16,184 bases of DNA from Anaerolineae bacterium (GTDB lineage Bacteria; Chloroflexota; Anaerolineae; Aggregatilineales; UBA3940): assembly GCA_050288085.1 (NCBI GenBank), contig JBNKDD010000118.1:1-16184 (forward strand), written 5' to 3'. The position numbers and the translations under genes were made by a program. Of the stretch, positions 390-16,184 are shown piece by piece. Numbering within the stretch: position 1 is the first letter of the stretch; each line of letters begins with the position of its first letter. The notes below the pieces were generated by a model, which was given only the letters and a program-made list of their open reading frames with translations, was not told the DNA's origin and made no database searches.

Positions 390-2738
390 TTAGTCCGGTG
401 GCAGTCTCCGCAGTTTGTCATACGCAGATTGTGCCTGCTGTGGTTGGTCGCTCAATTCATATGCCTGGGCTAAATGTAGATATAAGTCTCGAAGCTGAGA
501 TTGGACTTCAACGCTGCCGGGCAATTCTTCTTTAGCCAGTTGGAGCGCTTTTTCCAGATGTGCCTTCGCTTCGTTCACGGCAGCGAGGCGGAGCGCTTCT
601 TTCCCGGCAGCCAGGCTGTGGCGAAACGCGACTTCCGCCAGCCCGGCAGCGATCGCATGATAGGCCAACACAGCCTTCGAGCCCCCATCTACCTCAAGGA
701 CACCCAATGCGCGACGATGAAAAAGCCGCCGCCGCGCATCCCCGGCCTCGGTATAGACCACATCACGGATCATATTATGGGTGAATGTGTAAGTACTGGC
801 AGTACCAGTCTGTGCCACTTCAAGCAAGAGCTGCCCGCTGACTAATTCGTCCAGGGCTGGCAGCCCGATATCTTCTGCCAAGTTGGAGATGGCGCACAGG
901 CGCTCGAAAGTAAGCCTCAACTCGAGGACAGCTCCGGCTGCCAGGAGCGAAAATGCGTTCGGGCTGAGGCGGCTCAAACGAGAGCGGAGCACCGCCCGTA
1001 CAGTAGATGGGACGCGAATCGCCTCCCCCAGATCATGCTCCGCATCAACCTCAAAACCCCATTGGCTCTCCCTCAACAGTTTCGGGTGGAGTACCCTACG
1101 CTCGAGCATGTCCTTCAGGGATTCCATCAAATAAAATGGATGTCCGCGAGTTTCGTTGAACACCCACTGGGCGAAATCGGCATCGGAGGGCTCCAGTATG
1201 GACAGCATCATTTGCACTGTATCCTGTTCCTCTAACGATCCCAGCTCAAGATGAAACGGCCCCAATTCACGCCCCATCCGTGCCAGCCACTCAATCAGAT
1301 TTGACAGCCTGGGTTGGACGGGCGGCTGCAAGGCCTCTGAGCGCAGGCTGACCAACAACAGGATCCGCGCTTCGCTCTCTCGCCAGCGGCGGACGGCGTA
1401 CACCAACCAGTCCAGCGTCGCGCTGTCCGCCCACTGTAAATCGTCCACGAACAGCACCAGCGGCGACTGACCAGCCAGGGCCAGCGTCAACTGCACCAGA
1501 GATTCGAAAAGCTGCGTTCGACCGCCATCCACTTCCAAATAAGCGGCAGGCAGCTCAGCGTAAAGTTCGCGTAATTCCGGCAGCAGGTGACTCAACGGGG
1601 CTAACCAGGTTTCCCCTAACACATCCGCCGGTGTGTCTTCCCGATCAATCCAGGGGCGGACAGCCTCGATCAGCGGCTGGTACGACATGCGACTACCACT
1701 CTCAAATGCGCGTCCTTGCAGCACATTGGCTCCCTGGGAAACACTCCAGGCCAGGAATGCCCGAGCCAGCCGGGTTTTGCCAATCCCTGCCTCGCCGCGC
1801 AGCACCACGGTTTGGGGCCGACCTGTGGCAGCATATCCGTAGTGCACCACCAGGGCTTGGTACTCATTTGTGCGCCCTGTGAATAAGTTTCCAAGAAAAG
1901 TAACGGGTGTATCGGGCTGCCGCTGCTGGGGCACAGCGCGACGGGCAGGGTGTTGAGTGCGAATGCGCATAGCCAGTGCCTCTGTGTCTGGTTCTGGCTT
2001 CACGCTCAATTCAGCCGCCAGAATGGTGCGGCAGGCATCATAGGTCCCGAGAGCCTGACCCCGCTCGCCCGCTGCAAAGTGGGCACGCATCTTGCGGCGA
2101 TAGGCAACTTCGTTCAGCGCATCCAGTGAGATCCAGAGCGAGGTGGTCTCGGCTGTAGCAGCAAATTCGCCTCTCGTAAACTGGATTTCTGACAGCCGGT
2201 CGAGGATCAGGTTCAGGCGACGCCGCCAGACTTCGCGCTGGACGTTTGCCCAATCGTCAAAGCCGGGCGCGTCGCCCAGTGAAAACCCGGTGAGAAAATC
2301 GCCACGGTAGCAGGTTATGGCTGAACGCAGCAAGGGCAGGCTGGCCGCATTCTCCGGTTGTACACGGTTGGAGCGGTCGGCACGGGCCAGGGCATAGGCC
2401 TGTTCCACCGTGTGCAGATCAAGATCGATATCGGCGTCCGAATTCAGCGCCAGTGTATGGTGCGTGATAGAGAGGAAGAAGGCCTGGGCTGAACTCAGGG
2501 CGGTTTTCAGGTGACCGAGCGTGTTACGGAGTGACGCGTAGCTGCGCTCCTGGTTTGATTCCGGCCAGAGAAGGGCAGCTAGATGCTCACGCGGTTGTGA
2601 TCCACCCTCAAGTGCCAGATAGATTAGCAACGCCAGTGTTTTACGCGTGGGAAACGTCAGCAGCTTTTCACCAAGACGCACTTCTGGTGGCCCCAGCAAA
2701 TAGAGTTGTAACGATGGTGAATAGCCGGACACGATCAC
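390..2738 (-). CDS. AfsR/SARP-family transcriptional regulator with STAND NTPase domain (OmpR-type wHTH + BTAD + P-loop NB-ARC-like ATPase + C-terminal helical/TPR-like region)
   Basis: The N-terminus LLGPPEVRLGEKLLTFPTRKTLALLIYLAL matches the SARP winged-helix DNA-binding domain, followed by a BTAD-like helical region. Walker A GEAGIGKTRLARAF and Walker B LVLFVDDLQWAD (hhhhDD + LQWAD, typical of AfsR/LuxR-type STAND proteins) are present, then a long helical C-terminus. The first start in frame is GTG at 2738. The true start is uncertain; an alternative is the TTG at codon 14. Confidence 0.8.
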   Translation of the reverse strand: MIVSGYSPSLQLYLLGPPEVRLGEKLLTFPTRKTLALLIYLALEGGSQPREHLAALLWPESNQERSYASLRNTLGHLKTALSSAQAFFLSITHHTLALNSDADIDLDLHTVEQAYALARADRSNRVQPENAASLPLLRSAITCYRGDFLTGFSLGDAPGFDDWANVQREVWRRRLNLILDRLSEIQFTRGEFAATAETTSLWISLDALNEVAYRRKMRAHFAAGERGQALGTYDACRTILAAELSVKPEPDTEALAMRIRTQHPARRAVPQQRQPDTPVTFLGNLFTGRTNEYQALVVHYGYAATGRPQTVVLRGEAGIGKTRLARAFLAWSVSQGANVLQGRAFESGSRMSYQPLIEAVRPWIDREDTPADVLGETWLAPLSHLLPELRELYAELPAAYLEVDGGRTQLFESLVQLTLALAGQSPLVLFVDDLQWADSATLDWLVYAVRRWRESEARILLLVSLRSEALQPPVQPRLSNLIEWLARMGRELGPFHLELGSLEEQDTVQMMLSILEPSDADFAQWVFNETRGHPFYLMESLKDMLERRVLHPKLLRESQWGFEVDAEHDLGEAIRVPSTVRAVLRSRLSRLSPNAFSLLAAGAVLELRLTFERLCAISNLAEDIGLPALDELVSGQLLLEVAQTGTASTYTFTHNMIRDVVYTEAGDARRRLFHRRALGVLEVDGGSKAVLAYHAIAAGLAEVAFRHSLAAGKEALRLAAVNEAKAHLEKALQLAKEELPGSVEVQSQLRDLYLHLAQAYELSDQPQQAQSAYDKLRRLPPD

Positions 2739-4776: not shown

Positions 4777-4876
4777 CAACCGGAGAGCTTTGCATAACTC
4801 TACCTCAGACTGGGGAGGGGACGGGGGACATTCTATAGGGGTCAGGTTATGCGAAGCCCTAAAAGACGAGGATGAC

Positions 4877-5896
4877 ATGGACAGTAAACAGAAAATCTCA
4901 ACTAAGAACAACCTGGTCTGGCGCGAAGCAGTGGCCAGATACCAAAATCCGGATACCTTGCGCAGCACATGGCAGATCATCAATTCAATTGGCCCGTACC
5001 TTATCTTGTGGGTTTTGATGTGGCTTAGTCTGAGCATAAGCTATTGGCTCACTCTGGGACTGGCAGTCGTGGCAGCTGGCTTTATGGTGCGGATCTTCAT
5101 TATTTTCCATGATTGCGGCCACGGATCGTTCTTTAAGTCGAAGAAGGCGAATAAGCTCTGGGGTGGCATTACGGGGATTTTGACCTTTACACCTTTTGAG
5201 CAGTGGCGGCACGATCATGCACTGCATCACGCCTCGGCAGGAGACCTGGACAGACGCGGCTTTGGGGATATCTGGACGCTTACTTACCAGGAATACCTTG
5301 CCCTGCCTCGATTAAAACGGCTTGGATACCGGTTATTCCGCCACCCTCTGGTTATGTTTGGTTTTGGCCCTATATACACATTTGTCATAAAAACGCGATT
5401 CGCAAAACGTCATGATAGCCCACAGGCGCGCAGGAGTGTGCTTATCACCAACCTCGCTTTGCTGGGGATCATCATCTCTGCACATTTCTTAATTGGCCTC
5501 CAGGCCTATATCCTGATCCAACTTCCAATTATGGTAATTGGTGGGGCGGTAGGTGTATGGCTGTTTTACGTACAACACACCTTCGAGCCACCCTACTGGG
5601 AACGTCATACTGAATGGGATTTCACGACAGCAGCATTGCAGGGCAGTTCCTTCTATAAACTGCCCAAAGTGTTACAGTGGTTTACCGGGAATATTGGTAT
5701 TCATCACATTCATCACCTAAGCCCACTCATTCCAAATTACTATCTGGCTCGGTGCCAGGATGAAAACGATATCTTCCACAACATTGAGCCGCTCACCATG
5801 CGGGCCAGCCTCAGGTCGCTGAATATGCGCGTCTGGGATGAAAAATTGGAGAAGATGCTAAGTTTCCGCGAGATGCGGCGACTCTATGATCAATAG
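4877..5896 (+). CDS. des: Membrane acyl-lipid (Delta5-type, Des-like) fatty acid desaturase
   Basis: Three histidine boxes are present: HDCGHGSFF, WRHDHALHHASAGDLDRRG and HHIHHL. TM segments and the overall layout are collinear with Bacillus subtilis Des. The ORF opens at 4790. Alignment to Des favours the ATG at 4877 (MDSKQKIS...). Confidence 0.85.
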   Translation: MDSKQKISTKNNLVWREAVARYQNPDTLRSTWQIINSIGPYLILWVLMWLSLSISYWLTLGLAVVAAGFMVRIFIIFHDCGHGSFFKSKKANKLWGGITGILTFTPFEQWRHDHALHHASAGDLDRRGFGDIWTLTYQEYLALPRLKRLGYRLFRHPLVMFGFGPIYTFVIKTRFAKRHDSPQARRSVLITNLALLGIIISAHFLIGLQAYILIQLPIMVIGGAVGVWLFYVQHTFEPPYWERHTEWDFTTAALQGSSFYKLPKVLQWFTGNIGIHHIHHLSPLIPNYYLARCQDENDIFHNIEPLTMRASLRSLNMRVWDEKLEKMLSFREMRRLYDQ

Positions 5897-6009
5897 CCAT
5901 GTGGCGCTAAAGGCACCACCAGTGATGTCTGCTGATTCTCATTGGTTGAGTGCCTATAGCAATTTGGACACCTATTTTGGTCAAGAGATCTATTAACAAA
6001 GGAAATGCT

Positions 6010-6870
6010 ATGAGAATAATAATTGGCCCACTCTATACCCTGCGACCTTACGAGCGGGGCATCCAGGAAACCCTGGGTAAGTACAGCCGATTTGTGATGC
6101 CTGGGCTGGGCTTTCAAATCCCGCTTGTTCATATCACTCGCGTGCGCGATGTCCGCGAGCATACGATGGATATTGAACCTCAACCGGTGATCACCAAAGA
6201 TAACGTTGAGATTACAGTAGATGGTGTCATGTGGGTGCGCCCCACCGTCGATGAAGAAGGCATCAAGCGCACTTTTTATAACATCGACAATTGGAAGCGA
6301 GCAGTCATCCAGTTGGCAATGACGAATCTGCGTCAGGAGTTTGGCGAATTGTCGCTGGATGAGAGCCTGGTGGCTCGCGAGAAAATTGCCAACAATTTGC
6401 AGCGAATCCTGAACAGCTTCGCTGTCGAATGGGGACTGACTGTCAGCAAGGTAGAAATCCGCCTGATTGACCCCCCCGACGATATCAAAAAGGCCATGCA
6501 TAAACAGAAGACAGCCGAGCAAGAACGGCGTTCCATGAAACTGCTGGCGACGGGTGAGTTCGAGGCCGCCCAACAAGAAAAGTTGGCACTCATCCAGCGT
6601 GCTGAGGGAGAGCGCGAGGCAGTGATTCAAGTAGCCCAGGGCAAGGCTGAGGCCATTCGCCTGGTCAATGAGGCTGCCCACCAATACTTCGTCGGCAATG
6701 CTCAGGCTCTCAAGCAAATGGAGATGGTCGAAACCTCCCTACGTGAGAATGCCAAGGTCGTCATCACTGAACACGGTATCAGCCCGACCCTGCTTCTGGG
6801 CAGCCTGCCGGTCAGTGTACCGAGGGATGGAAACGGTGCTGGAGTTAAGACAAGAGAAATGAAGGAATAG
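6010..6870 (+). CDS. SPFH/band-7 (stomatin/prohibitin-like) membrane microdomain protein
   Basis: YERGIQETLGKYSRFVMPGLGFQIPLVHI...PQPVITKDNVEITVDGVMWVR is followed by a long A/E/Q-rich coiled-coil tail, which together form the canonical SPFH core. The RBS AAGGAAA lies 5 nt upstream of ATG 6010. The ORF opens at 5950. Confidence 0.85.
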   Translation: MRIIIGPLYTLRPYERGIQETLGKYSRFVMPGLGFQIPLVHITRVRDVREHTMDIEPQPVITKDNVEITVDGVMWVRPTVDEEGIKRTFYNIDNWKRAVIQLAMTNLRQEFGELSLDESLVAREKIANNLQRILNSFAVEWGLTVSKVEIRLIDPPDDIKKAMHKQKTAEQERRSMKLLATGEFEAAQQEKLALIQRAEGEREAVIQVAQGKAEAIRLVNEAAHQYFVGNAQALKQMEMVETSLRENAKVVITEHGISPTLLLGSLPVSVPRDGNGAGVKTREMKE

Positions 6871-7109: not shown

Positions 7110-8588
7110 ATGAGAATTTTGTTAGTTTACCCTGAGTTCCCGGACACTTTTTGGAGTTTCAAGCATGCGCTCAAGTTTGTCCGCAAAAAGGCGGTTGCAC
7201 CGCCATTAGGCCTGTTGACGGTGGCGGCTATGTTGCCTGCCAGGTGGGAAAAACGGCTGGTTGATCTCAATGTAACCGGCTTGAACCACGAAGACCTGGT
7301 ATGGGCTGACTATGTCTTTATCAGCGCAATGGCCATACAGCGTGATTCGGTTCAAACCGTCATTGCTGAGTGCAAAGAAGTCGGGGTGAAGGTCGTAGCC
7401 GGAGGTCCGTTATTCACAATGGAATATGAGCAATTCCCTGATGTTGATCACCTCGTACTTAATGAAGCTGAATTGACGCTGCCACCCTTTCTGGCAGACC
7501 TGGCTAATGGGTGTGCTCAACCGATCTACACTACAACTGAATACCCGGACATCAGCCAAACTCCAACACCCCTCTGGGAGTTGGTCAATTTCAAACATTA
7601 CGATACGGTCAGCATCCAGTTTTCCCGCGGCTGCCCCTATAACTGTGAGTTCTGCAATGTGACAACCCTATTAGGTCACCGTCCGCGTCTGAAGACCGCT
7701 GCACAGATCATCGCCGAACTGGATGGCCTGTATGACCTGGGCTGGCGAAAAGGTGTCTTCTTTGTGGACGATAACTTTATCGGCAACAAGAAGGAGCTCA
7801 AGTCCACGGTGCTGCCCGCCTTGATCGAATGGCGGAAAGGCAAGGTGGGGATGCCATTTAACACCGAGGCATCCATCAACCTGGCCGACGATCCTGGCCT
7901 GATGCAGCTTATGACAGATGCCGGGTTTACCACAGTTTTTGTTGGCATTGAAACGCCCAACGAAGATAGTTTGATTGAATGCAGCAAGACGCAGAACAAG
8001 GGCCGTGACCTGGTCGAGAGTGTCAAACGACTCCACCGGGCAGGGCTCCAGGTACAGGGCGGCTTCATTGTTGGCTTTGACAGCGATACCCCATCGGTCT
8101 TTCAGCAGCAGATCGATTTCATCCAGCAGAGTGGTGTTGTAACGGCCATGGTAGGGCTACTGCAAGCTCCTCGAGGGACACGTCTACATGAGCGGCTGCA
8201 GCGAGAAGGCCGGATCGCCGATGAATTTTCAGGGGATAATGTGAGTGGCTCGACCAATATCATCCCCGCAATGAACCTGGACACGCTGCGGGAAGGCTAC
8301 CGTGAGATACTCGATCATATTTATACTCCAAAGTTCTATTATGACCGGGTCATCACCTTTCTGCGTGAGTACAAACCACCTCAGATCAAAAGTCCTCTTG
8401 ATTTTCAACACCTGATGGCTTTTTGGCGCTCGATTTATCAACTGGGTATTCGTGGGGCAGAACGTGTGCAGTATTGGAGACTGTTTTTTTGGACTCTATT
8501 CCGGCGTCCGCGGCTATTTCCGCTGGCAATCACACTGGCTATCTATGGTTTCCATTTCCGCAAGGTAGCCGAACTGCATGTAGGCTGA
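7110..8588 (+). CDS. B12-binding domain radical SAM protein with C-terminal DUF4070
   Basis: The N-terminal cobalamin-binding region reads MRILLVYPEFPDTFWSFKHALKFVRKKAVAPPLGLLTVAAM. The rSAM cluster motif CPYNCEFC (CxxxCxxC) is present. The C-terminal FYYDRVITFLREYKPP region is DUF4070-like. Strong RBS AGGAGGA 7 nt upstream of the start. Confidence 0.9.
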   Translation: MRILLVYPEFPDTFWSFKHALKFVRKKAVAPPLGLLTVAAMLPARWEKRLVDLNVTGLNHEDLVWADYVFISAMAIQRDSVQTVIAECKEVGVKVVAGGPLFTMEYEQFPDVDHLVLNEAELTLPPFLADLANGCAQPIYTTTEYPDISQTPTPLWELVNFKHYDTVSIQFSRGCPYNCEFCNVTTLLGHRPRLKTAAQIIAELDGLYDLGWRKGVFFVDDNFIGNKKELKSTVLPALIEWRKGKVGMPFNTEASINLADDPGLMQLMTDAGFTTVFVGIETPNEDSLIECSKTQNKGRDLVESVKRLHRAGLQVQGGFIVGFDSDTPSVFQQQIDFIQQSGVVTAMVGLLQAPRGTRLHERLQREGRIADEFSGDNVSGSTNIIPAMNLDTLREGYREILDHIYTPKFYYDRVITFLREYKPPQIKSPLDFQHLMAFWRSIYQLGIRGAERVQYWRLFFWTLFRRPRLFPLAITLAIYGFHFRKVAELHVG

Positions 8589-8589
8589 A

Positions 8590-8712
8590 GGTGGCCCTGG
8601 TAGATGGAGTTGTAATGATGGTGAATAGCCGGACACGCTCACATTCCTTGCGACGCTCTTGAGACTCTACTTCATTATACTAAATTTAGGAAGTCCAAAA
8701 CCGACGTATAGT
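8590..8712. repeat. Copy 2 of the ~120 bp direct repeat (orphan copy; the SARP-like 5' end is decayed)
   Basis: Aligns to 2684-2806. The minus-strand reading gives (V)SVSGYSPSLQLHLPGPP versus the regulator's MIVSGYSPSLQLYLLGPP, so it is a remnant of a SARP N-terminus and promoter with no gene body behind it. It is followed by a perfect hairpin, AAAACCGAC gtata GTCGGTTTT, at 8697-8719. Confidence 0.75.
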
Positions 8713-8792
8713 CGGTTTTGAGTGAAAGTGGCGAAGGTTCAGTAGATAGTCGAAATCTCATAAATATAGTAACTCTACAAAAGAGGCATAAA

Positions 8793-9197
8793 ATGGCACA
8801 AGATGAGAAGAAGGTAAGTTTTAAACAAAGGTGGAATGAAATTAGACAAAGGTGGGATAAAGCCCGTCCAACGAAAAAGATTGTCTTCTGGATTTCGGTA
8901 GCCGTTAGTATTCTAACGATGATTGTTGGCTTCAGTTGGGGGGGATGGGTTACGAGTAGTAAAGCCGAGCTAATGGCTGAGGAGGCCGTTGTCGAGCGCC
9001 TGTCGTTGATTTGTGTTGACCAGTTTAAGCAAGATCCGGAGACAGAGCAGAAGCTCATAGAGTTTGTCGAAACAAGTTCTTACAAACAAGATGATTATGT
9101 CAGAGATCAAGGTTGGGCGACCATGTTTGGTGATGAGGAGCCCGATAAAAACGTTGCCGACGCCTGTGCAAAACTGATCGCGCAGATCGACCAGTAG
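8793..9197 (+). CDS. Hypothetical protein with one TM helix and an acidic C-terminus
   Basis: ORF 8718-9197. The likely start is ATG 8793 (MAQDEKKVSFKQRWNEI...) with AAGAGG upstream. It has a single hydrophobic segment, IVFWISVAVSILTMIVGFSWGGW. It lies in an AT-richer segment, and I recognise no family. Confidence 0.4.
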   Translation: MAQDEKKVSFKQRWNEIRQRWDKARPTKKIVFWISVAVSILTMIVGFSWGGWVTSSKAELMAEEAVVERLSLICVDQFKQDPETEQKLIEFVETSSYKQDDYVRDQGWATMFGDEEPDKNVADACAKLIAQIDQ

Positions 9198-9452
9198 ACA
9201 AAACAGTCTACCTCAAAATCAGCCTTTCACCAGTTGTCATAGTCCTATGTATCGCATTCACATTACTATGTCTACTCGACTTTCGCCGTTAGTGTAGCCC
9301 TATCTGGAGTTTCGCGTTCTTGCGTCCGTGGAATCGGCGAAACGGCAAATATTGAATATTGGGAAGTACAGGATATTTGTCCAGTGTTTGTTGGTGAGTT
9401 TGATAGTCATGTAGGCTAGTATACCCCTAAATGTCAACAAGACAGATGATGA

Positions 9453-9743
9453 CTCAAGATAATAAATGCAGGGGTGAATGGCCCGGTGATCATTGACAGA
9501 GTAAGGCGCGCCCAGGTAGAAGAAAACGATATGTGCCTGGGCTATGATGTGATGTCGGGTAAGCTTGTCAACATGCTCGAAGCAGGCATTATCGACCCGG
9601 TGAAAGTCACGTGTGGCGCTGTGTCCAATGCGACCAGTATTGCAGCTATGATCCTGACAACCGAGGCATTGGTGACAGACAAGCCTAAAAGGAAGCAGAA
9701 GCAACCCATTAGCCCGAATGGGTACGACGACTTCGATTACTAA
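9453..9743 (+). pseudogene. groEL: Relic of a chaperonin GroEL (Cpn60) C-terminus, ~96 codons, truncated at the 5' side
   Basis: LKIINAGVNGPVIIDRVRRAQVEENDMCLGYDVMSGKLVNMLEAGIIDPVKVTCGAVSNATSIAAMILTTEALVTDKPK is collinear with the GroEL equatorial C-terminal region (...IAENAG.EGSVIV.K.....GYNAATGE.V.M.EAGI.DP.KVTRSAL.NAASVA.L.LTTEA.V.DKP.). An in-frame stop lies immediately upstream at 9450-9452. No GroEL-like sequence is found in any frame of 9300-9450. The tail KRKQKQPISPNGYDDFDY replaces the usual Gly-Met repeat. Confidence 0.65.
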
Positions 9744-9901
9744 TAGGGCTTACGCAGTTGAGTATGGGACAAGGAGCTTAAGCCCTTTGCCCAGGCACAG
9801 CATCAACTTGAATTGCGTGAGTCCTAACCATGTGATCGTAGTATATGAGGTGGGGCAATGGCAGCCCCATGAGTCATTGACAGAATGAGGAGTTGACATC
9901 G

Positions 9902-10030: not shown

Positions 10031-10318
10031 TTTGATCCGGCGGGGAAGCCTACCTGGGGGATGGCAACCATCACCAGACAGTAAGAATGTTAGAAACTCC
10101 AAGAATACCTGGAAAAGCTCGGCGGTGGTCTGGTGGTGATTCAAGTGGGAGCCGTGACCCAAACTGAGCATAAGAGAAAAGCATTGTGCCGAGAACGTGG
10201 TGCACATGATTCATGCTGCAATTGAAGGGAGATTGCACCCAGTGAAGATGTAACGCTTATGAATATGGTAATGACACTTGTAGAGAGTGGCAAGAGTCTG
10301 AGTGAAGGAGAATGCCTC

Positions 10319-10630
10319 ATGACAAACAAACAAAGGATCAAAACCCAGCTATCCAAAAGCCAGATAACAACCGCTGCTCTGACACAGAAGGCGGAATCTG
10401 AACTAGTAGACGTATTCAATCGTATTAACCGTCTGCAGGTGCTTTTGCGCCGATTTGTCCCTTTCGTTGCGAGCGAATCCGCTCAAATCGTCACCCAGAC
10501 TCAGTCCACCTTGAAAACAGCCGGCCCCAAGCTCAGCCGAGTTATGGACTTCCAAAATGCGCAGAATAACCGAGATCGATTAGAGAATTGGAAAAACGAG
10601 GGTGAGAGAACTGAGCATGTCTCAGCATAA
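10319..10630 (+). CDS. Hypothetical helical/coiled-coil-like protein (~103 aa). It overlaps the start of the glycosyltransferase gene by 14 nt.
   Basis: ORF 10259-10630. ATG 10319 (MTNKQRIKTQLSK...) is preceded by GAAGGAG 7 nt upstream. The protein is Q/S/T-rich and I recognise no domain. Confidence 0.4.
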   Translation: MTNKQRIKTQLSKSQITTAALTQKAESELVDVFNRINRLQVLLRRFVPFVASESAQIVTQTQSTLKTAGPKLSRVMDFQNAQNNRDRLENWKNEGERTEHVSA

Positions 10631-12902
10631 TACCACGAATACATCGAGTAAACGCATCGGATTTATTGGTAACCATCTGCCGCGCCAGTGTGGCATTGCC
10701 ACTTTTACGACCGATTTGTGTGAAGCCATTGCAGCGGAATACAGCGAAACAACGTGCATTGCCTTACCAGTTAATGATATTGCTGGTGGTTATGCCTATC
10801 CACCCCGCGTTCGATTTGAACTTACAGAGAAAGACATTGCCTCCTATCGTCGTGCCGCAGACTTTCTCAATATCAACAATGTTGATCTTGTCTGCCTGCA
10901 ACATGAATATGGAATTTATGGTGGGCCAGCAGGCAGTCACATCCTTGCTCTTTTGCGGGAATTGCACATGCCGATAGTCACAACACTACACACTATTCTG
11001 GAGCAGCCCGATGCTGATCAACTCAAGGTACTACAAGAAGTAGCCACGCTATCTGATCGTGTAGTTGTCATGAGTGAGCGGGGGAGCGAATTCCTAAAGC
11101 GAATCTATGGTGTTTCGGCGAAGAAGATCGATTTCATTCCTCATGGTATCCCCGATGTACCGTTCACCGACTCCAGTTTTCACAAAGATCTATTTGGGGT
11201 CGAGGGTAAAATGGTCTTACTCAGCTTTGGATTGCTATCCAGCAATAAGGGAATTGAAGATGTCATTGCTGCTCTACCTACCATCGTGGCACAATATCCG
11301 AATGTGGTGTACCTCGTCCTCGGCGCAACCCACCCTCATGTTGTGCGAAACGAAGGCGAAACCTATCGCCTGTCTCTGCAGCGACTGGCACGCGACAAAG
11401 GCATCGAAGGCAACGTCATTTTTTACAACCGCTTTGTCACGTTAGGGGAACTAAATCAATTCATTAGTGCGGCAGATATTTATCTCACCCCTTACCTGAA
11501 CGCTGCCCAGATTACCTCCGGCACGCTAGCTTATACTTTGGGCGCGGGCAAAGCCGTGATCTCGACACCCTACTGGTATGCAGAAGAAGTTCTCGCCAAT
11601 GAACGCGGTGTACTCATACCCTTCCATAATTCGGCAAAGCTCGCTGAGGCGGTAATTGACTTGCTCGACAATGAAGCCGAGCGTGATGCGATGCGTAAAC
11701 GAGCCTATATGTTTGGCCGTCAGATGATCTGGCCGCAAGTGGCACGGCGCTACATGGAAAGTTTTGAGCGTGCCCGTGCTGAATGTCGGTATACTTTCCC
11801 TTCCAGCTTCGTGGTTAAACCGTTAGATCAACGTCCGGATGAACTGCCGCCCCTTAAACTCGATCATTTACATCATATGACCGACGACACCGGGATATTG
11901 CAGCACGCCAAATTCACAATCCCTAATTACTATGAGGGTTACTGCATCGACGATAACGCCCGTGCCTTAATTGTAAGTACCTATCTGGCAGAATTGGAGT
12001 TAGGGAGTGGACAAATTTTAGCGCTGACGACCCGGTATCTGGCTTTTATCGCGTACGCTTTTAACAGCGAAACCGGTCGCTTTCGCAATTTTATGGATTA
12101 TCAGCGTCATTGGCTGGAAGAAAATGGATCAGAGGATAGTCATGGTCGCACCTTGTGGGCATTAGGGACTGTGATTGGTCGTTCTAGCACACCAGACCTC
12201 ATAAGCATGGCGAGTTCGCTGTTCGAACAAGCTTTGCCCGCCATCGTTGACACGACCAGCCCACGTGCGTGGGCATTTACGCTGATCGGCATTCACGAAT
12301 ATTTTCGAAGATTTAATGGCGATCGCCTGGTCAGTCAAATGCGTGATGAATTGGCAGAGCGATTGCTCACCCTCTATCAAGCCAATCGTAGAGATGAATG
12401 GCGCTGGTATGAAAGTGGCCTGGCTTATTGCAATGCAGTGCTGCCACTTGCCATGTTAATGTGTGGGCAGTGGATACCAGACGCCAGCATGATGGCAGCC
12501 GGGCTAGAGTCACTCAAATGGTTAGCCAATATCCAACGGTCAGACGGGCCGGGGGGGCACTTTATACCGATCGGCTCCAACGGCTTTTATCAGCATGGGG
12601 GTGAACGAGCCAGATTTGATCAACAGCCAGTAGAGGCACAAACGATGGTATCTGCCTGCCTCGAAGCTTATCAAACTACAGGGGATAAATACTGGCGCAT
12701 GGAAGCCCAGCGTGCCTTCGAGTGGTTTCTAGGACGGAATGATCTCAATCTTCCCGTTTACGATCCGACGACAGGTGGCTGCCGGGATGGACTACACCCC
12801 GACCGAGCGAACGAGAACCAGGGCGCTGAGTCTACCTTAGCGTTTTTACAAGCCTGGTTGGGGCTGCGCCTGACCGAAAATACCTATCAATTAACACGCT
12901 AA
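10617..12902 (+). CDS. Family 4 (GT-B) glycosyltransferase fused to a ~370-aa C-terminal domain of unknown function (possibly (alpha/alpha)6-barrel glycoside hydrolase/phosphorylase-like)
   Basis: The N-terminal half shows the GT4 fold: RIGFIGNHLPRQCGIATFT..., VLLSFGLLSSNKGIED, and the E-x7-E-like region YLTPY...ISTPYWYAEE. The C-terminal half (from ~HLHHMTDDTGIL) is rich in W/aromatic helical repeats with DDNARAL, HGRTLWALG and NQGAESTLAFL motifs, suggestive of a six-hairpin glycosidase. The start is ATG 10617 (alternatively GTG 10602). Confidence 0.8.
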   Translation: MSQHNTTNTSSKRIGFIGNHLPRQCGIATFTTDLCEAIAAEYSETTCIALPVNDIAGGYAYPPRVRFELTEKDIASYRRAADFLNINNVDLVCLQHEYGIYGGPAGSHILALLRELHMPIVTTLHTILEQPDADQLKVLQEVATLSDRVVVMSERGSEFLKRIYGVSAKKIDFIPHGIPDVPFTDSSFHKDLFGVEGKMVLLSFGLLSSNKGIEDVIAALPTIVAQYPNVVYLVLGATHPHVVRNEGETYRLSLQRLARDKGIEGNVIFYNRFVTLGELNQFISAADIYLTPYLNAAQITSGTLAYTLGAGKAVISTPYWYAEEVLANERGVLIPFHNSAKLAEAVIDLLDNEAERDAMRKRAYMFGRQMIWPQVARRYMESFERARAECRYTFPSSFVVKPLDQRPDELPPLKLDHLHHMTDDTGILQHAKFTIPNYYEGYCIDDNARALIVSTYLAELELGSGQILALTTRYLAFIAYAFNSETGRFRNFMDYQRHWLEENGSEDSHGRTLWALGTVIGRSSTPDLISMASSLFEQALPAIVDTTSPRAWAFTLIGIHEYFRRFNGDRLVSQMRDELAERLLTLYQANRRDEWRWYESGLAYCNAVLPLAMLMCGQWIPDASMMAAGLESLKWLANIQRSDGPGGHFIPIGSNGFYQHGGERARFDQQPVEAQTMVSACLEAYQTTGDKYWRMEAQRAFEWFLGRNDLNLPVYDPTTGGCRDGLHPDRANENQGAESTLAFLQAWLGLRLTENTYQLTR

Positions 12903-12917
12903 CGGAAAGGTTAATCA

Positions 12918-13934
12918 ATGCGCATTGCAATGCTCTCGCCGATCGCCTGGCGCACACCGCCGCGTCACTATGGTCCCTGGGAAAGTGTGGTTTCCCTCTT
13001 GACCGAGGGCCTGGTAGCCCGTGGTTACGATGTCACCCTGTTTGCGACGGGTGACTCGGAATCGAGCGGCAAACTTCGGTTTGTCTGCCCACAAGGCTAT
13101 GAGGAAGATCGTTCGATCATACCGAAAGTCTGGGAATCGCTGCACATTTCAGAACTCTTCGATCACGCGGATGACTTCGACATTATCCACAATCACTTTG
13201 ACTTTCTGCCTTTGACCTATAGCGGACTGATCCAAACCCCTGTAGTTACGACAATTCATGGTTTTTCATCACCTGGGATTTTGCCGGTTTATAAAAAATA
13301 CAACGGAAGCGTGTTTTACGTTTCCATTAGTGATGCCGACCGAGCACCTGAGCTTGACTATATTAAAACCATCTATCACGGCATTGACTTACAACAGTTT
13401 GATTTTCAGTCCGAACCGGACGATTATCTGCTCTTTTTCGGGCGTATTCACCCTGATAAGGGTGCCAAAGAGGCGATTGAAATTGCCAAGGCTTGCAACA
13501 AACCGTTGATATTGGCGGGCATCATTCAGGACGAAGATTACTATCAGGAGGATGTTCAACCCTATCTTGATAACAGCCAGGTTGTTTATATGGGTAGTGT
13601 CGGACCCGTTCAGCGTGGCAAGTTGTTGGGTAAGGCATTGGCACTACTCCACCCTATCCATTTCGACGAACCCTTTGGGCTGTCGGTAATTGAGGCGATG
13701 GCATGTGGTACACCAGTCATCGCATTCAACAGGGGTAGTATGCCTGAGTTGATCGAACATGGAAAAAACGGTTTCCTGGTATCCGGGTGCCAAGAGGCGA
13801 TTGAACATATAGATCGCATAAAAACCATTAACCGGGCAGACTGCCGCCGAACAGTCGAGGACCGTTTCACCGCAGACAGAATGGTTGAACAATACCGCGA
13901 TGTTTATACACTGATGATGGAAAGTGTGAATTGA
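12918..13934 (+). CDS. Short family 4 (GT-B) glycosyltransferase
   Basis: MRIAMLSPIAWRTPPRHYGPWESVV is the typical N-terminal acceptor-domain motif of ~340-aa GT4 enzymes. The C-terminal donor-domain motifs are FFGRIHPDKG and EPFGLSVIEAMACGTPVIA (the EX7E region). It starts 16 nt after the preceding stop, with a GGAAAGG RBS. Confidence 0.8.
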   Translation: MRIAMLSPIAWRTPPRHYGPWESVVSLLTEGLVARGYDVTLFATGDSESSGKLRFVCPQGYEEDRSIIPKVWESLHISELFDHADDFDIIHNHFDFLPLTYSGLIQTPVVTTIHGFSSPGILPVYKKYNGSVFYVSISDADRAPELDYIKTIYHGIDLQQFDFQSEPDDYLLFFGRIHPDKGAKEAIEIAKACNKPLILAGIIQDEDYYQEDVQPYLDNSQVVYMGSVGPVQRGKLLGKALALLHPIHFDEPFGLSVIEAMACGTPVIAFNRGSMPELIEHGKNGFLVSGCQEAIEHIDRIKTINRADCRRTVEDRFTADRMVEQYRDVYTLMMESVN

Positions 13935-15418
13935 TGGTCAAAGATACCGGATCGCAGCCCAGGGTCAAACGTAAACGGGAGAAAATCCTGGGTGATTCCT
14001 CACGTGTCATTACTCGACTTCACCTGCCTGATGACCCGCAACGTATCGAAAAAATCATTCAACGTGTACTCGATTTACCGGATACAACAGCCGAAACACT
14101 GCTTGCCCAGGTGATGTTTGATTTTTCTAATCGGCACGAAGACATCAACGTAGTTTTTAACCGGCATCTGAATAGAGTAAAAGACTATATTGCTGAAGAC
14201 ACAGTACTCAGCGAGACTAAGAAGGCACTTATTGGGGCTTATTTCACTATGGAGTATTCTATTGAATCCGCTGCCCTTTTCAACCCTTCAATCGTTCCCC
14301 ATCCTGACCAAAGTAATGTGCAAAACGGCAGTCTGCGTTTTATTATGAGTCTGAGAGCAACCGGTGAAGGTCACCTGTCGTCGATTGTGTTTCGCAGTGG
14401 TGTACTTGACTCGAATAGCACGATCCTTTTCGACCCACTCAGCGAGTATGTTGTAACCCCCGATGTTTACCTGGACCCGGTTTACGTTCTGCATCTTTTT
14501 CGCCTGAAGCTCAGAGAAATGGGGGCAGATAATGACGTAATGCATCATCTGCTCAACCAACTCCCAGACGAGTTCTCCTATCACAGATTAAGAGAAAACA
14601 TTGAAGACCTTCGCGCAAACCCCGTTTTTTCTGTAGTTCGCCAAAACAGAACCTTTGAGATCATCTTCTGGCTTGCCAATTCCAATTACGAAGTATATTT
14701 CGAACGTGATCATTTGATCTCCGAACGAGTCATCTTTCCTACATCAAAAATTGAAAGTCGTGGTATTGAAGATGCTCGGTTCGTACAGTTCTTCGATGAT
14801 ACTGGCCAGGTAACCTACTATGCAACTTATACAGCTTATAATGGGGTGAGTATTCTCCCCCAGTTGATTGAAACGAAAGACTTCATCAAGTTCAAAATAT
14901 CAACACTTAATGGGAAGGCCGTGCAGAACAAGGGAATGGCACTTTTTCCGCGCAAAGTTCAGGATCGTTATGTAATGCTCTCACGCCAGGATGGAGAAAA
15001 CAACCGCATTATGTTCTCGGACAATATCCATTTCTGGCAAGAGTCTGAAATCATACAGGAGCCCATATGTCCCTGGGAATTAATTCAACTAGGTAACTGT
15101 GGTTCACCTCTTGAAACCAATGAAGGCTGGATTGTACTTACTCATGGTGTGGGACCCATGCGTCAGTATTGCATTGGTGCTGTACTCCTCGATCTTGAAA
15201 ATCCGGCTAAAATTATCGCCCACCTGGAAGAGCCATTGCTGGTCCCTCACGAGGAAGAACGCGAAGGATATGTACCTAATGTCGTTTATTCCTGTGGATC
15301 ACTTATCCACAATGGTGAGTTAATAATCCCCTATGCCATGTCCGATTTCATGTCTGGTATAGCAACTGTGAGAGTAGATGAGTTGATACGCTGCATGCAA
15401 CCGATTGGGGTCAGTTAG
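13934..15418 (+). CDS. GH130-like (PF04041, formerly DUF377) beta-propeller glycoside phosphorylase/hydrolase with ~250-aa N-terminal extension
   Basis: The C-terminal ~240 aa (GIEDARFVQF..., YYATYTAYNG, NKGMALFPRKVQDRYVML, EGWIVLTHGVG...YCIGAVLLDLENPAKII, NVVYSCG, IPYAMSD) are collinear with GH130 mannoside phosphorylase motifs (EDPR, Y.TYTA, NKN.ALFP.KI.GKY.ML.R, T.EGW...YHG, LLDL.DP, NVVF..G, YYG.AD). ATG 13934 overlaps the upstream TGA (TTGATGG), which indicates translational coupling. Confidence 0.7.
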   Translation: MVKDTGSQPRVKRKREKILGDSSRVITRLHLPDDPQRIEKIIQRVLDLPDTTAETLLAQVMFDFSNRHEDINVVFNRHLNRVKDYIAEDTVLSETKKALIGAYFTMEYSIESAALFNPSIVPHPDQSNVQNGSLRFIMSLRATGEGHLSSIVFRSGVLDSNSTILFDPLSEYVVTPDVYLDPVYVLHLFRLKLREMGADNDVMHHLLNQLPDEFSYHRLRENIEDLRANPVFSVVRQNRTFEIIFWLANSNYEVYFERDHLISERVIFPTSKIESRGIEDARFVQFFDDTGQVTYYATYTAYNGVSILPQLIETKDFIKFKISTLNGKAVQNKGMALFPRKVQDRYVMLSRQDGENNRIMFSDNIHFWQESEIIQEPICPWELIQLGNCGSPLETNEGWIVLTHGVGPMRQYCIGAVLLDLENPAKIIAHLEEPLLVPHEEEREGYVPNVVYSCGSLIHNGELIIPYAMSDFMSGIATVRVDELIRCMQPIGVS

Positions 15419-15649
15419 ATTCCGTTGCTGTATATGGGAACGATAGATAATAAAAAAGGGCCATGTGAAATGGGCGTAGGGTACAAAAAAATGGTAGTCA
15501 TGTGAGATTATCACCGCCCCCTGACGAGAAAACGGGGGTGAGGAGAAGGTCTCGGATCGACCAAATGAAATCGGTAAGCCCCAGCGCCATCGCCGGCGTC
15601 TGGGGGTGATACTTTTTTTGCCCTGAGGTTCAGGTAAGGCCTGTCGCAG

Positions 15650-16184
15650 TGAGCGATGAGGGCGGCACCAGTTGTAGACAGTTACCCCCCACCAGCCGAG
15701 CGCCAGTTTGGTGTCTGAGCGATGGGCGAAGGCTAGCGAACGACGGACCTGATGAGCGCTCATGCGACGGGCCGTGCCATTGCGACGTTCAATGGCCGAG
15801 GTGTTGGGTTTGGCATAGCCTAGCCAGCGCAGAGTCTGATGAACGCGAGTGCGTGAGCCATGTGTGTAACGGATCGTGGTCTCCACGACACGACTGCCCT
15901 CTCGATGCTTGATAATCTGGACGTGGGCCAAGCTGCGCGGGATACGATAACGCAGCGCTGGAAAACGTCCCCGACTGCCCTGCCGACTGGGACGGTAGGG
16001 TTGCCCAAAAATCTCCGGGAACAGAGTCGCATAACTGGCATCACCGTCGGTGAACAGCACCAGTTTGTGACGATTAGCCAGGCGGCTGGCTCCGTCCTCC
16101 AGCAAGCGAGGGTGTAAGATTTTATGTGTAAATGGCATGGGGTAAAACAATGGAAAAGAAGGAGAAAAAACCATGCCAGAAGAA
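15650..16184 (-). mobile_element. IS1-family DDE transposase gene (partial in window; possibly a remnant)
   Basis: The minus-strand ORF 15320-16174 continues open past the window end. The segment VLFTDGDASYATLF...NTSAIERRNGTARRMSAHQVRRSLAFAHRSDTKLALGWWGVTVYNWCRPH is collinear with the IS1 InsB C-terminus (W.TDGW.LYE ... [40 protein letters not shown]). The distal ~115 aa of the ORF is low-complexity and probably not coding. A possible terminal inverted-repeat-like sequence, GGTGATACTTTTTTTGCC, lies at 15605-15622. Confidence 0.5.

Follow-up and report, generated by a model that had tools for sequence, protein, structure and literature searches.

Results

Layout of the locus

The window, by which we mean the whole 16,184-nt stretch of Anaerolineae DNA that was analysed, carries three same-strand open reading frames, here called g1, g2 and g3 (Table 1). 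Together with the junctions, which were read directly, the ORF list confirmed the translationally coupled three-gene operon put forward in an earlier sequence-only reading, and homologues of the genes are co-localised in other genomes. The g1 stop codon (TAA, 12900-12902) is separated from the g2 ATG at 12918 by a spacer of 15 nt, not 16 as first given; this spacer, cggaaaggttaatca, contains a Shine-Dalgarno-like GGAAAGG run. The g2 TGA (13932-13934) and the g3 ATG (13934-13936) share one A, giving the TGATG overlap already described. Taking the ATG at 10617 as the g1 start agrees with a database protein (P0121) and with the N-termini of homologues, and the 494-aa g3 product is identical to another database protein (P0001). 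Residues of g3 are numbered throughout on the 495-aa form counted from the TTG at 13931.

Table 1. Features of the cassette and its flanks (window positions)
Feature	Position	Strand	Basis or remark
B12-binding radical SAM protein (DUF4070)	7110..8588	+	Pfam; recurrent upstream neighbour of g1
Upstream ORF	10259-10630		103 aa from internal ATG 10320; overlaps g1 start
Conserved leader, ~130 nt, directly 5' of g1	10487..10616	+	nucleotide comparison with L081/L082
g1	10617..12902 (ORF 10602/10617..12902)	+	761 aa from ATG 10617
g1 GT-B (GT4-like) domain, residues 1-390	10617..11786	+	Pfam, PimA match, motif alignment
g1 (alpha/alpha)6 barrel, residues ~441-761	11937..12899	+	outside every Pfam model
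g2	12918..13934	+	338 aa
g3	13934..15418 (ORF 13931/13934..15418)	+	494 aa from ATG 13934; extended GH130, core partner of g1
g3 N-terminal extension, residues 1-104	13931..14242	+	AF2 model, conservation
g3 beta-rich segment, residues ~105-186	14243..14488	+	contains FNPSIV (N118) and RFIMSLRATGEGH (R136/R142)
g3 helical insertion, residues ~187-262	14489..14716	+	AF2 secondary structure, pLDDT 78-93
g3 remaining GH130 propeller, residues 263-495	14717..15415	+	alignments to 9FJ8, 7FIP, 9ERG
IS1-family transposase fragment, cut off by contig end	15420..16184	-	tblastn; outside cassette

The leader is ~88-90% identical to its counterparts in L081/L082, and farther upstream the sequences are 73-76% identical or unalignable. 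Substitutions in the leader lack a third-position bias in the ORF123 frame, and no Rfam match to it was found. The 103-aa upstream ORF noted before does exist and does overlap g1, but it is not conserved even among 89%-identical relatives and had no homologue in 80 loci; it is probably spurious. Homologues of the radical SAM protein lie on the same strand directly upstream of g1 in Desulfobacterota, Bacteroidota-type and Verrucomicrobiota loci (L005, L028, L032 and L063; 61-62% identity), and the homologue in L081/L082 reaches 81%.

Downstream, an ORF on the minus strand (15320-16174) gave only a weak rve_3 match in Pfam, and by tblastn it is 50-60% identical to regions of Acaryochloris plasmids that carry an IS1 family transposase annotation. 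The presence of an abutting IS had been taken to suggest an acquired module. Our results do not support this, since 89%-identical relatives keep the synteny Band7-rSAM-g1-g2-g3 without the IS; because homology to these IS-free relatives breaks off exactly at the g3 stop codon, with its end at 15419, the IS is a later local insertion.

Domain architecture of the three proteins

Three Pfam models (PF00534, PF13439 and PF13692) match g1 residues 26-364 above their gathering scores, and no Pfam model matched residues 400-761. Among PDB sequences g1 best matches PimA and PimB, both GDP-mannose enzymes, and for the GT-B domain PimA comes first (E 2e-10). When 23 family members at 39-100% identity were aligned with PimA, TeGSS and g2, the donor site of g1 proved degenerate: at the positions of the EX7E glutamates it has Q298 and Y306, and at that of the conserved, diphosphate-binding Arg it has G205, with K211, H125 and G26 retained. 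This loss of Leloir GT4 residues is family-wide. Judged by its residues, the g1 GT-B domain is atypical and has lost the nucleotide-sugar signature, and it could be catalytically dead.

The C-terminal part of g1 is homologous to YPO2471 (PDB 7TEM), and GH76 alpha-mannanases are closest by structure; among characterised folds the nearest are alpha-mannanases, mannose/cellobiose epimerases and the alpha-endomannosidase MmpH. Within the barrel D445-D446-N447 is invariant, and an NQGAES motif lies at the C-terminus. No sequence-level link from the barrel to GH76 or another CAZy family was found. The proposed fusion of a GT4-type domain to a six-hairpin barrel is borne out.

The same three GT4 models also match g2, whose entire length can be aligned with the glucosylsucrose synthase TeGSS (42% identity; PDB 7FG9/8X3Q, E 6e-81). 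It keeps the catalytic residues Y18, R176, K181, E251 and E259, whereas its acceptor-rim residues deviate from those of TeGSS (PMC9909042). By this signature g2 is predicted to be an intact, canonical retaining GT4 of the group that holds TeGSS, an alpha-1,2-glucosyltransferase, and pteridine glucosyltransferases. Of the "two retaining GT4s" proposed for the operon, only g2 therefore carries the catalytic signature; in g1 the two EX7E glutamates are gone, as is the Arg that binds diphosphate.

For g3, PF04041 (GH130) matches only residues 262-489 (114.8 bits; cut-off 26). In structure searches, however, ~255-265 of its residues align to whole GH130 enzymes of 300-350 aa over ~395 columns, which indicates that the fold starts at around residue 100 and that the helical insertion breaks it up. 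This insertion, absent from canonical GH130 enzymes, sits between the first beta segment and the remaining propeller. About half of what had been described as a 250-aa unknown N-terminal domain, residues ~105-186, accordingly probably provides the otherwise absent first portion of the GH130 propeller. For residues 1-104 neither PDB nor Pfam relatives were found. They consist of a basic segment followed by three to four helices, with R14, D22, R25, R68 and H69 invariant. Confidence is only moderate for the two AF2 models (pLDDT 71 and 66), with values of 86-96 across g3 residues 31-110 and of <50 within some of the g3 propeller.

Aligned residue by residue with 9FJ8, 7FIP and 9ERG, g3 shows a phosphorylase signature (E280-D281, K334, R352, H405 and D472), the diagnostic positions being taken from Table 2 of PMC7660257 and from PMC12814180. 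By alignment D281 would be the proton donor, E280 and K334 are beta-1,2 markers, and R352 and H405 would bind phosphate; the set corresponds to the "GPs-beta-1-2" pattern of that table. [quoted passage not shown] In sequence and structure searches the beta-1,2-mannoside enzymes that come closest to g3 are Teth514_1788/1789, Uhgb_MS and Lin0857, and its top NCBIfam match is beta-1,2-mannobiose phosphorylase (E 2e-42), although this, like every NCBIfam match of the cassette proteins, falls far under the equivalog cut-off. Q386 of g3 occupies the position of Uhgb_MS R242, and since an Arg of this type touches the phosphate(s) in characterised beta-1,2 enzymes, the donor of g3 may differ. No signal peptide or transmembrane segment was predicted in g1, g2 or g3.

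Distribution of the cassette

Among 80 species-representative loci g1 adjoins g3 in 66, the exceptions being mostly contig-truncated, with a modal g1-to-g3 spacing of -4. The two genes are an invariant, translationally coupled core, and the trio proposed from this single window is strongly co-localised elsewhere. Optional members are g2 (39 of the 80 loci), a second, short GH130 similar to beta-1,2-mannobiose phosphorylase (33 loci, E 1e-52 to 1e-72) and the B12 radical-SAM gene. Around the cassette no further conserved gene was found in these loci, and no transporter, exporter or regulator was conserved alongside it. In nine loci from at least four phyla the g2 homologue bears a C-terminal mannose-6-phosphate isomerase (PMI) cupin (PF01050), and one extended GH130, P0308, carries a fused HAD-IIB/PMM-like domain. 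Such PMI and PMM-like fusions suit a catabolic route (Man1P to Man6P to Fru6P) equally as an anabolic one.

Homologues of g1 number >8000, and the best 120 of these are 78-88% identical and 744-777 aa long. The g1 and g3 architectures, which the sequence-only reading called not textbook, are indeed not textbook as far as the literature goes, in which no paper on this cassette was found, but they are not rare: both are very common and highly conserved, with homologues that number in the thousands, belong to different phyla and show 50-89% identity. As the same genes recur jointly in dozens of unrelated genomes, the arrangement is far from chance. The cassette is a very widespread bacterial gene set, of which the operon described here is one local Anaerolineae-type copy.

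Discussion

We propose, with about an even chance of being right, that the cassette is a self-contained, cytoplasmic system that builds and turns over an intracellular mannose-containing oligosaccharide or glycoside. In such a system g3 would catalyse a reversible mannose transfer, with alpha-mannose-1-phosphate (or possibly GDP-mannose) on one side and a beta-1,2-linked acceptor on the other, a reaction that the short canonical GH130 paralogue of other genomes would share. Where present, g2 would use an NDP-sugar to attach an alpha-linked hexose to this same glycan or its primer; its closest characterised relative moves glucose, not mannose (PMC9909042). The g1 barrel may cleave or transglycosylate the product and so serve in processing or priming, much as MmpH does in the recycling of mycobacterial methylmannose polysaccharide, and the altered GT-B domain could bind the glycan or use a non-nucleotide donor. 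The PMI and HAD-IIB/PMM-like fusions seen elsewhere tie the cassette to mannose phosphates, and further links to mannose are the short GH130, the PimA and PimB matches of g1 and the characterised folds nearest to its barrel. In outline the proposal keeps to the sequence-only reading, in which the genes could make and recycle a glycoside or oligomannoside. Precedents are the self-recycling pair of ManT (GT4) and MmpH ((alpha/alpha)6) (PMC9883506), dual GP/GT beta-1,2 GH130 enzymes (PMC12814180), and mannogen (PMC8950772, PMC12814180).

Catabolic salvage would account for part of these data. The GH130s would release Man1P by phosphorolysis of beta-1,2- or beta-1,3-manno-oligosaccharides taken up by the cell, such as those of yeast or fungal glycans, and PMM and PMI would feed this Man1P into glycolysis, as proposed earlier for Thermoanaerobacter and Listeria GH130 loci. 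The phosphorylase signature of g3 fits, the fusions supply precisely the Man1P-to-Fru6P enzymes, and characterised beta-1,2 GH130 enzymes belong to salvage clusters (PMC4264767). We nevertheless consider salvage unlikely: unlike in the Thermoanaerobacter cluster, an ABC transporter, SusC/D, solute-binding protein or secreted glycosidase was conserved in none of the 80 loci, the invariant partner is GT-like, the protein that bears the PMI domain is a glycosyltransferase, and known salvage enzymes have neither such cross-phylum conservation nor extra domains like those of g3. The match of g2 to TeGSS, in turn, could suggest a glucosylsucrose-type (sucroglucan) or other alpha-1,2-glucoside compatible solute that g2 would make in the manner of TeGSS/Alr1000 and that g1 and g3 would trim or recycle. 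Alpha-1,2-glucosides are common substrates of (alpha/alpha)6 enzymes (GH15, GH63, GH65), which favors this reading, and glucosylsucroses are known stress solutes (PMC9909042). Yet TeGSS adjoins a sucrose-phosphate synthase, and neither this enzyme nor the phosphatase lies in the window or is conserved in the loci. Sucrose-contacting and rim residues are changed in g2 (W10A, Y70 to a gap, R117F, N122I), the gene is missing from roughly half of the cassettes, among them most of those in Verrucomicrobiota, and the GH130 signature and PMI fusions indicate mannose; this reading is thus distinctly improbable.

A role in cell-envelope glycan, glycolipid or exopolysaccharide biosynthesis is suggested by the JGI names ("glycosyltransferase involved in cell wall biosynthesis"), by weak NCBIfam matches to EPS glycosyltransferases and by PimA, the top PDB match of g1, being a membrane-associated lipid mannosyltransferase. 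The names, however, are generic COG labels, g1, g2 and g3 all come out as soluble in the predictions, phosphorylase-type GH130s are cytoplasmic (PMC7660257), and no flippase, polymerase, polyprenyl-phosphate transferase or exporter was conserved in the 80 loci, which makes an envelope role very unlikely. Least probable to us is the analogy drawn in the sequence-only reading, a mannosylglycerate or mannosylglucosylglycerate (MGG) type cycle around a glycerate-based compatible solute. In its favour, the MGG pathway includes a GT4 alpha-1,2-mannosyltransferase, MggA, one family member has a fused HAD-IIB domain, of a superfamily that includes sugar-phosphate phosphatases, and rare GH130-GT81 fusions are listed in CAZy (PMC7660257). 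But MGG, alpha-Man-(1,2)-alpha-Glc-(1,2)-glycerate, has alpha linkages only and is made by GpgS (GT81), MggA and a phosphatase, with no GH130 step (PMC3736172); GpgS/MpgS (GT81, GT55, GT78) or a phosphatase was neither in the window nor conserved in the 80 loci, and no NCBIfam match to glycerate-solute enzymes was obtained.

Set against its closest known counterparts, the proposed mannose-glycan cassette differs in several respects. Teth514_1788, Teth514_1789, Lin0857 and Uhgb_MS (GH130_4, GH130_6) share 21-28% identity with g3, which has in addition a ~100-aa N-terminal helical extension and a ~75-aa helical insertion within the fold, has Gln386 for Uhgb_MS R242 and is always partnered with g1. 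TeGSS (tll1591)/Alr1000, a GT4 UDP-glucose:sucrose alpha-1,2-glucosyltransferase, has Y18, R179, K184 and both EX7E glutamates in common with g2, but the acceptor-cavity residues are changed in g2, no sucrose-phosphate synthase adjoins it, and its orthologue is PMI-fused in other genomes. YPO2471 of Yersinia pestis is a structural-genomics (alpha/alpha)6 protein with 20% identity to the g1 barrel; it is stand-alone, ~400 aa long and putatively exported, whereas the barrel is cytoplasmic and GT-B-fused, and no paper mentioning YPO2471 was found.

In the mycobacterial methylmannose-polysaccharide system ManT, a GT4 alpha-1,4-mannosyltransferase with the ribose-binding Glu that g1 is without, and MmpH, an (alpha/alpha)6 endo-mannosidase, are separate proteins, in contrast to the g1 fusion. 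GH130 enzymes are absent from that system, and the methyltransferases in it do not belong to the radical SAM class; sequence homology between ManT/MmpH and the cassette was not detected, and the likeness is one of functional analogy. A further parallel, one of functional logic, is Cgs, whose domains run in the order transferase, (alpha/alpha)6 transglycosylase, phosphorylase. Cgs is a single membrane protein of GT84 and GH94 type, and the cassette combines GT4-like and GH130 domains, GT4 chemistry being retaining. The two would be alike in combining three parts, a transferase domain, a transglycosylase with the (alpha/alpha)6 fold and an inverting phosphorylase for beta-1,2 links, around a beta-1,2 glycan made in the cytoplasm (PMC10834661).

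Gene layout and distribution of the cassette

The genes g1, g2 and g3 lie on the same strand and are tightly spaced (see table). We place the start of g1 at ATG 10617, since this is also the start of the database protein P0121 and agrees with the N-termini of homologues; the alternative start, GTG 10602, would add five residues. As read from the sequence, the g1/g2 junction consists of TAA, 15 nt with GGAAAGG, and ATG, and the TGATG overlap that had been noticed between g2 and g3 is present.

Features of the window and of homologous cassette loci in other genomes (L handles); rSAM, B12-binding radical SAM/DUF4070 gene; PMI, mannose-6-phosphate isomerase cupin domain
Feature	Sequence	Coordinates	Strand	Remarks
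SARP/BTAD-AAA(STAND)-type regulator	window	390-2738	-	
DesA-like fatty-acid desaturase	window	4790-5896		
Band7/SPFH protein	window	5950-6870		
rSAM	window	7110-8588	same as g1	directly upstream of g1
1.28-kb insertion	window	8594-9875		between rSAM and g1
ORF in insertion	window	8718-9197		159 aa
17-nt direct repeat	window	9490-9506, 9874-9890		ends at right boundary of insertion
Leader	window	10487-10616		~130 nt before g1
g1	window	10617-12902	+	ORF, 761 aa from ATG
g2	window	12918-13934	+	ORF, 338 aa
g3	window	13934-15418	+	ORF, 494 aa, identical to database protein P0001
Putative IS1-family transposase fragment	window	15420-16184		starts right after g3 stop; cut by contig end
PMI-bearing g2	L003	7327-7686		
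PMI-bearing g2	L024	6386-7738		
PMI-bearing g2	L048	6356-7732		
PMI-bearing g2	L020, L021, L023, L036, L038, L045			
rSAM	L005	1232-2705		
rSAM	L028	14083-15567	-	
rSAM	L032	2203-3675		
rSAM	L063	4129-5595		
rSAM	L081	2455-3933		
Band7 gene	L024	10614-11549		after cassette

Homologues number at least 8000 for g1 and at least 8000 for g3. The best 120 for each share 73-89% identity and do not vary in length, with sources that include Chloroflexota, Desulfobacterota, KSB1 and Bacteroidota; among the matches listed, the closest named relatives are Anaerolineae. Such high identity across phyla suggests an older horizontal spread of the cassette. The N-terminal region of g3 alone retrieved 1498 clusters (50% identity) at E<=1e-3 and 999 at E<=1e-10. 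We scanned one genome per species, obtained at least 589 loci and retained 80 of these. Cultured carriers include Desulfobacter vibrioformis DSM 8776, Verrucomicrobium sp. BvORR034 and Alteromonadaceae M269. The homologues are indeed co-localised in other genomes, as the sequence-only reading required, with g1 beside g3 in 66 of the 80 loci; the 14 exceptions are mostly cut by a contig end, and those at L072 and L075 are genuine. The commonest gene orders are g1-g3, g1-g2-shortGH130-g3 (with or without PMI), g1-shortGH130-g2-g3, and g1-g2-g3 as in the window, and the modal g1-to-g3 spacing is -4. The short GH130, a canonical paralogue of g3 (~310 aa) that is not found in the window, resembles beta-1,2-mannobiose phosphorylases (E 1e-52 to 1e-72, matches that fall short of the cut-offs); one such gene is that of Desulfobacter vibrioformis (L024 7758-8699). 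The copy in the window is intact and ordinary for this cassette.

A Promethearchaeota MAG (L010, JAIWHJ010000032.1) carries the full g1-g2-shortGH130-g3 order at 57-82% identity to the window proteins, and this Asgard copy is either a horizontal transfer or a binning contaminant. Some genomes have the cassette in duplicate, namely L028 (see below) and L058, the latter with two long GH130 genes.

The GH130 enzyme g3

The Pfam GH130 match in g3 is confined to residues 262-489 (numbered along 495 residues from TTG 13931) and the five-bladed beta-propeller is found in the protein. The best solved relatives, Teth514_1788, Teth514_1789, Uhgb_MS and Lin0857, are all beta-1,2-mannoside enzymes. We mapped diagnostic residues from Table 2 of PMC7660257 and from PMC12814180 onto g3 alignments. 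The signature comprises the proton donor D281, the beta-1,2 markers E280 and K334 (+1 subsite), the phosphate pair R352 and H405, and the C-terminal D472, which is the “GPs-beta-1-2” pattern of PMC7660257, and we infer that R142 is the equivalent of the +1 Arg (UhgbMP R59). With this residue set g3 is predicted to be a beta-1,2-type GH130 phosphorylase. However, known beta-1,2 GH130 phosphorylases are single modules of ~300-390 aa with an Arg at the site of Uhgb_MS R242, whereas g3, at 494 aa, is extended at the N-terminus, has helices inserted within the fold, and carries a family-invariant Gln (Q386) at that site. In Uhgb_MS, R242 touches the donor phosphates and weighs more in GDP-mannose use than in phosphorolysis (PMC12814180).

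The first 250 aa of g3 had been described as a domain of unknown nature, a description that has to be narrowed. Since the sequence alignment spans only 213 residues, the fold must start near residue 100, and the region reads as a helical extension (~1-104), a beta-rich stretch that would provide the otherwise missing start of the propeller (~105-186), and inserted helices (~187-262). Within the beta-rich stretch the motifs FNPSIV and RFIMSLRA line up with HNAGVV and RYIMLFRS in canonical GH130 enzymes. In hhalign comparisons with the short GH130 the beta-rich segment aligned in the expected register at only E 0.02, and the whole N-domain gave a negative result; the N-terminal 262 aa had no meaningful match in PDB and Pfam. 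Sequence support being weak, the assignment of blade 1 rests on structure searches.

The glycosyltransferase g2

The g2 protein, the most clear-cut of the three, aligns end to end with TeGSS, the glucosylsucrose synthase of Thermosynechococcus (PDB 7FG9/8X3Q; E 6e-81, 42% identity over 338 aa), and UDP-glucose:tetrahydrobiopterin glucosyltransferases are more distant relatives. The TeGSS residues for catalysis and UDP binding, Y18, R179, K184 and E256, are kept (Y18, R176, K181 and E251 in g2), together with the EX7E glutamates. By its residues g2 is an intact retaining GT4 of the TeGSS/alpha-1,2-glucosyltransferase group.

The fusion protein g1

Residues 1-390 of g1 match GT4 sequence models and have a GT-B fold, PimA being matched weakly. 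Our motif alignment covered 23 g1-family members (39-100% identity) as well as PimA, TeGSS and g2. The EX7E motif is absent from all 23 members, which have QITSGTLxY in its place; family-wide, the first Glu is replaced by Gln298 and the second, ribose-binding Glu by Tyr306. In the same alignment EX7E is kept in g2, TeGSS and PimA (E274/E282). Of the donor-diphosphate Arg/Lys pair (PimA R196/K202, TeGSS R179/K184) g1 retains the Lys as invariant K211, and the Arg is replaced by an invariant Gly205; the HT-motif His (H125) and the Gly-loop are also kept. The equivalent of the guanine-binding Asp253 of PimA is a hydrophobic Leu, from which we draw no conclusion on donor specificity. In ManT, where EX7E is E313/E321, the second Glu binds the nucleotide ribose and the E321A mutant is inactive (PMC9883506). 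Since this second Glu is replaced in g1, its GT-B domain is not a standard Leloir GT4; the domain may use another donor, bind glycans, or be inactive. Thus, of the “two retaining GT4s” assigned earlier to the operon, g2 is intact, but the GT-B domain of g1 lacks both EX7E and the diphosphate Arg.

The C-terminal part of g1 (residues 441-761) adopts an (alpha/alpha)6 fold and has no Pfam match at E<=1. A profile of the barrel family matched a single PDB entry, 7TEM, the uncharacterised Yersinia protein YPO2471 (E 3e-18), and with this match the earlier guess of a six-hairpin domain proved right. Many polar and aromatic positions of the barrel are invariant, among them D445-D446-N447. GH76 alpha-mannanases have the (alpha/alpha)6 fold in common with it; however, the Pfam search places the barrel outside the GH76 sequence family, and its invariant D445-D446 pair is a candidate counterpart of the GH76 catalytic Asp-Asp pair.

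Domain fusions and the radical SAM neighbour

The g2 orthologue carries a C-terminal PMI domain (PF01050, E 1e-30) at nine loci in at least four phyla; the window g2 is without it. Extended GH130 proteins are fused to an N-terminal HAD-IIB/PMM-like domain in P0308 (751 aa), which has Arg at the Q386 position, and to a C-terminal response-regulator receiver domain in P0313 (622 aa), both of these database proteins being rare types in a representative search. The PMI and PMM-like fusions tie the cassette to the Fru6P/Man6P/Man1P pool.

In close relatives, and at 61-62% identity in four distant loci, rSAM is likewise the gene directly 5' of g1 and has the same orientation. Consequent on this neighbourhood, the glycan may be methylated or otherwise modified. 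The metagenome chromosome OW818676.1 (L028) holds two sets, g1-shortGH130-g2-g3 and a divergently placed mini-cassette, rSAM-g1-shortGH130, which rSAM heads.

Interpretation

[quoted passage not shown] According to this reading g3, and elsewhere also the short GH130, would act as a reversible beta-1,2-mannoside phosphorylase or transferase, g2 would be an alpha-hexosyl transferase, and the g1 barrel would serve as a processing hydrolase or transglycosylase.

We weighed this synthetic and recycling module against catabolic salvage, glucosylsucrose synthesis, mannosylglycerate or mannosylglucosylglycerate (MG/MGG) solutes, and envelope glycans. The direction of flux, on which salvage and synthesis differ, is not fixed by the domain fusions. 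All-against-all clustering of flanking ORFs from the 80 loci returned no further conserved flanking gene, be it a transporter, regulator, exporter or phosphatase; all three products are free of hydrophobic segments and of signal-like N-termini, and in g3 no signal peptide or transmembrane segment is predicted. Glucosylsucrose synthesis is what the likeness of g2 to TeGSS would suggest, and sucrose-phosphate synthase is absent from the window and not conserved across the 80 loci. In contrast to the catalytic residues, the acceptor cavity of TeGSS is altered in g2 (W10A, a gap at Y70, R117F, N122I and W254F), and because of these differences the acceptor need not be sucrose.

An MG/MGG-type cycle, as proposed from the sequence alone, does not survive the comparison. 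GpgS (GT81), MpgS (GT55/78) and a specific phosphatase are all absent from the window, and none of them is conserved across the 80 loci. According to PMC3736172, MGG is alpha,alpha-linked and is made by GT81 and GT4 enzymes together with a phosphatase, and no step uses a GH130. The reading fails since the pathway has no place for a GH130 and the glycerate/3-phosphoglycerate synthase and phosphatase that it requires are missing. Two candidates for a GH130 of the MGG pathway were also rejected, MggA/MggS because MggA is a GT4, and TM1225 because it is a beta-1,4-specific GH130_2.

The module of mannoside synthesis and turnover can be extended to a more specific reading, which we regard as a long shot. 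Here g1-g3 would be a machine for a cytoplasmic beta-1,2-mannan, similar to Leishmania mannogen or to cyclic beta-1,2-glucan, in which the extended GH130 builds the chain up from mannose-1-phosphate and breaks it down again, while the barrel, as founder of a new glycoside hydrolase or transglycosylase family, sets chain length or cyclises the product. The EX7E-less GT-B domain would then represent a new non-Leloir GT4 branch, either sugar-1-phosphate-using or glycan-binding, and in some lineages rSAM would further modify the glycan.

Novelty and significance

The literature searched, in which subscription journals are thinly covered, held no description of the cassette, of YPO2471, of GH130+GT4 operons or of a bacterial mannogen, and to all appearances the cassette is uncharacterised. 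Three variant features come together in it, namely a GH130 with extension and insertion, a GT4-like domain devoid of EX7E, and a YPO2471-type barrel. It makes a well-defined and testable target for carbohydrate enzymology rather than a categorical surprise. If our reading is true, it would give a function to a cassette represented in about 1000 or more 50%-identity protein clusters, in Chloroflexota, Desulfobacterota, Bacteroidota, Verrucomicrobiota, Planctomycetota, Gammaproteobacteria, Spirochaetota and one Asgard MAG, many of the carriers being sediment anaerobes. It would also point to an intracellular mannoside so far unrecognised, either a reserve or a stress solute, and would set up a GH130 subfamily marked by additional domains. 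The YPO2471-type barrel family would receive its first function, and g1 would exemplify a GT4-like domain in which the signature of Leloir donor binding is lost. For making oligosaccharides, enzymes like GH130 phosphorylases and TeGSS-type transferases are also in demand.

Surroundings of this copy

Two relatives (L081 and L082), about 89-90% identical at the nucleotide level, share the order Band7-(RRM)-rSAM-g1-g2-g3 with the window, and their homology stops exactly at the g3 stop codon, 15419. The element downstream is 50-60% identical to regions that carry the annotation IS1 family transposase, and its Pfam result is a weak rve_3 match only (E 0.002), with no IS1 DDE. This element had been taken to mark an acquired island, a view contradicted by the same synteny in L081 and L082, which are free of the IS. 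Assemblies typically break at repeats, as in a contig that ends inside a putative IS1-family gene, and the IS at the end of g3 is a local insertion or assembly break point.

The insertion between rSAM and g1 is missing from L081 and L082. Its ORF encodes one predicted transmembrane helix and has no family match, and a repeat search around the insertion recovered only the 17-nt direct repeat. A 103/123-aa ORF upstream of g1, noticed earlier, was rejected as part of the system: it has no Pfam/NCBIfam match, occurs in none of the 80 loci and is not conserved in the 89%-identical relatives. The leader before g1 is about 88-90% identical to L081/L082, i.e. conserved like coding sequence, with substitutions that are not of the coding type. 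It may be a regulatory leader; Rfam gave no match at E<=1 over the whole window.

At the far end of the window the SARP/BTAD regulator lies in a stretch of higher GC (0.57-0.60, as compared to 0.44-0.52 over the cassette), and the DesA-like desaturase is assigned by an NCBIfam match (E 3e-133) just below the cut-off. Desulfobacter vibrioformis (L024) likewise has a Band7 gene after the cassette, probably by coincidence.
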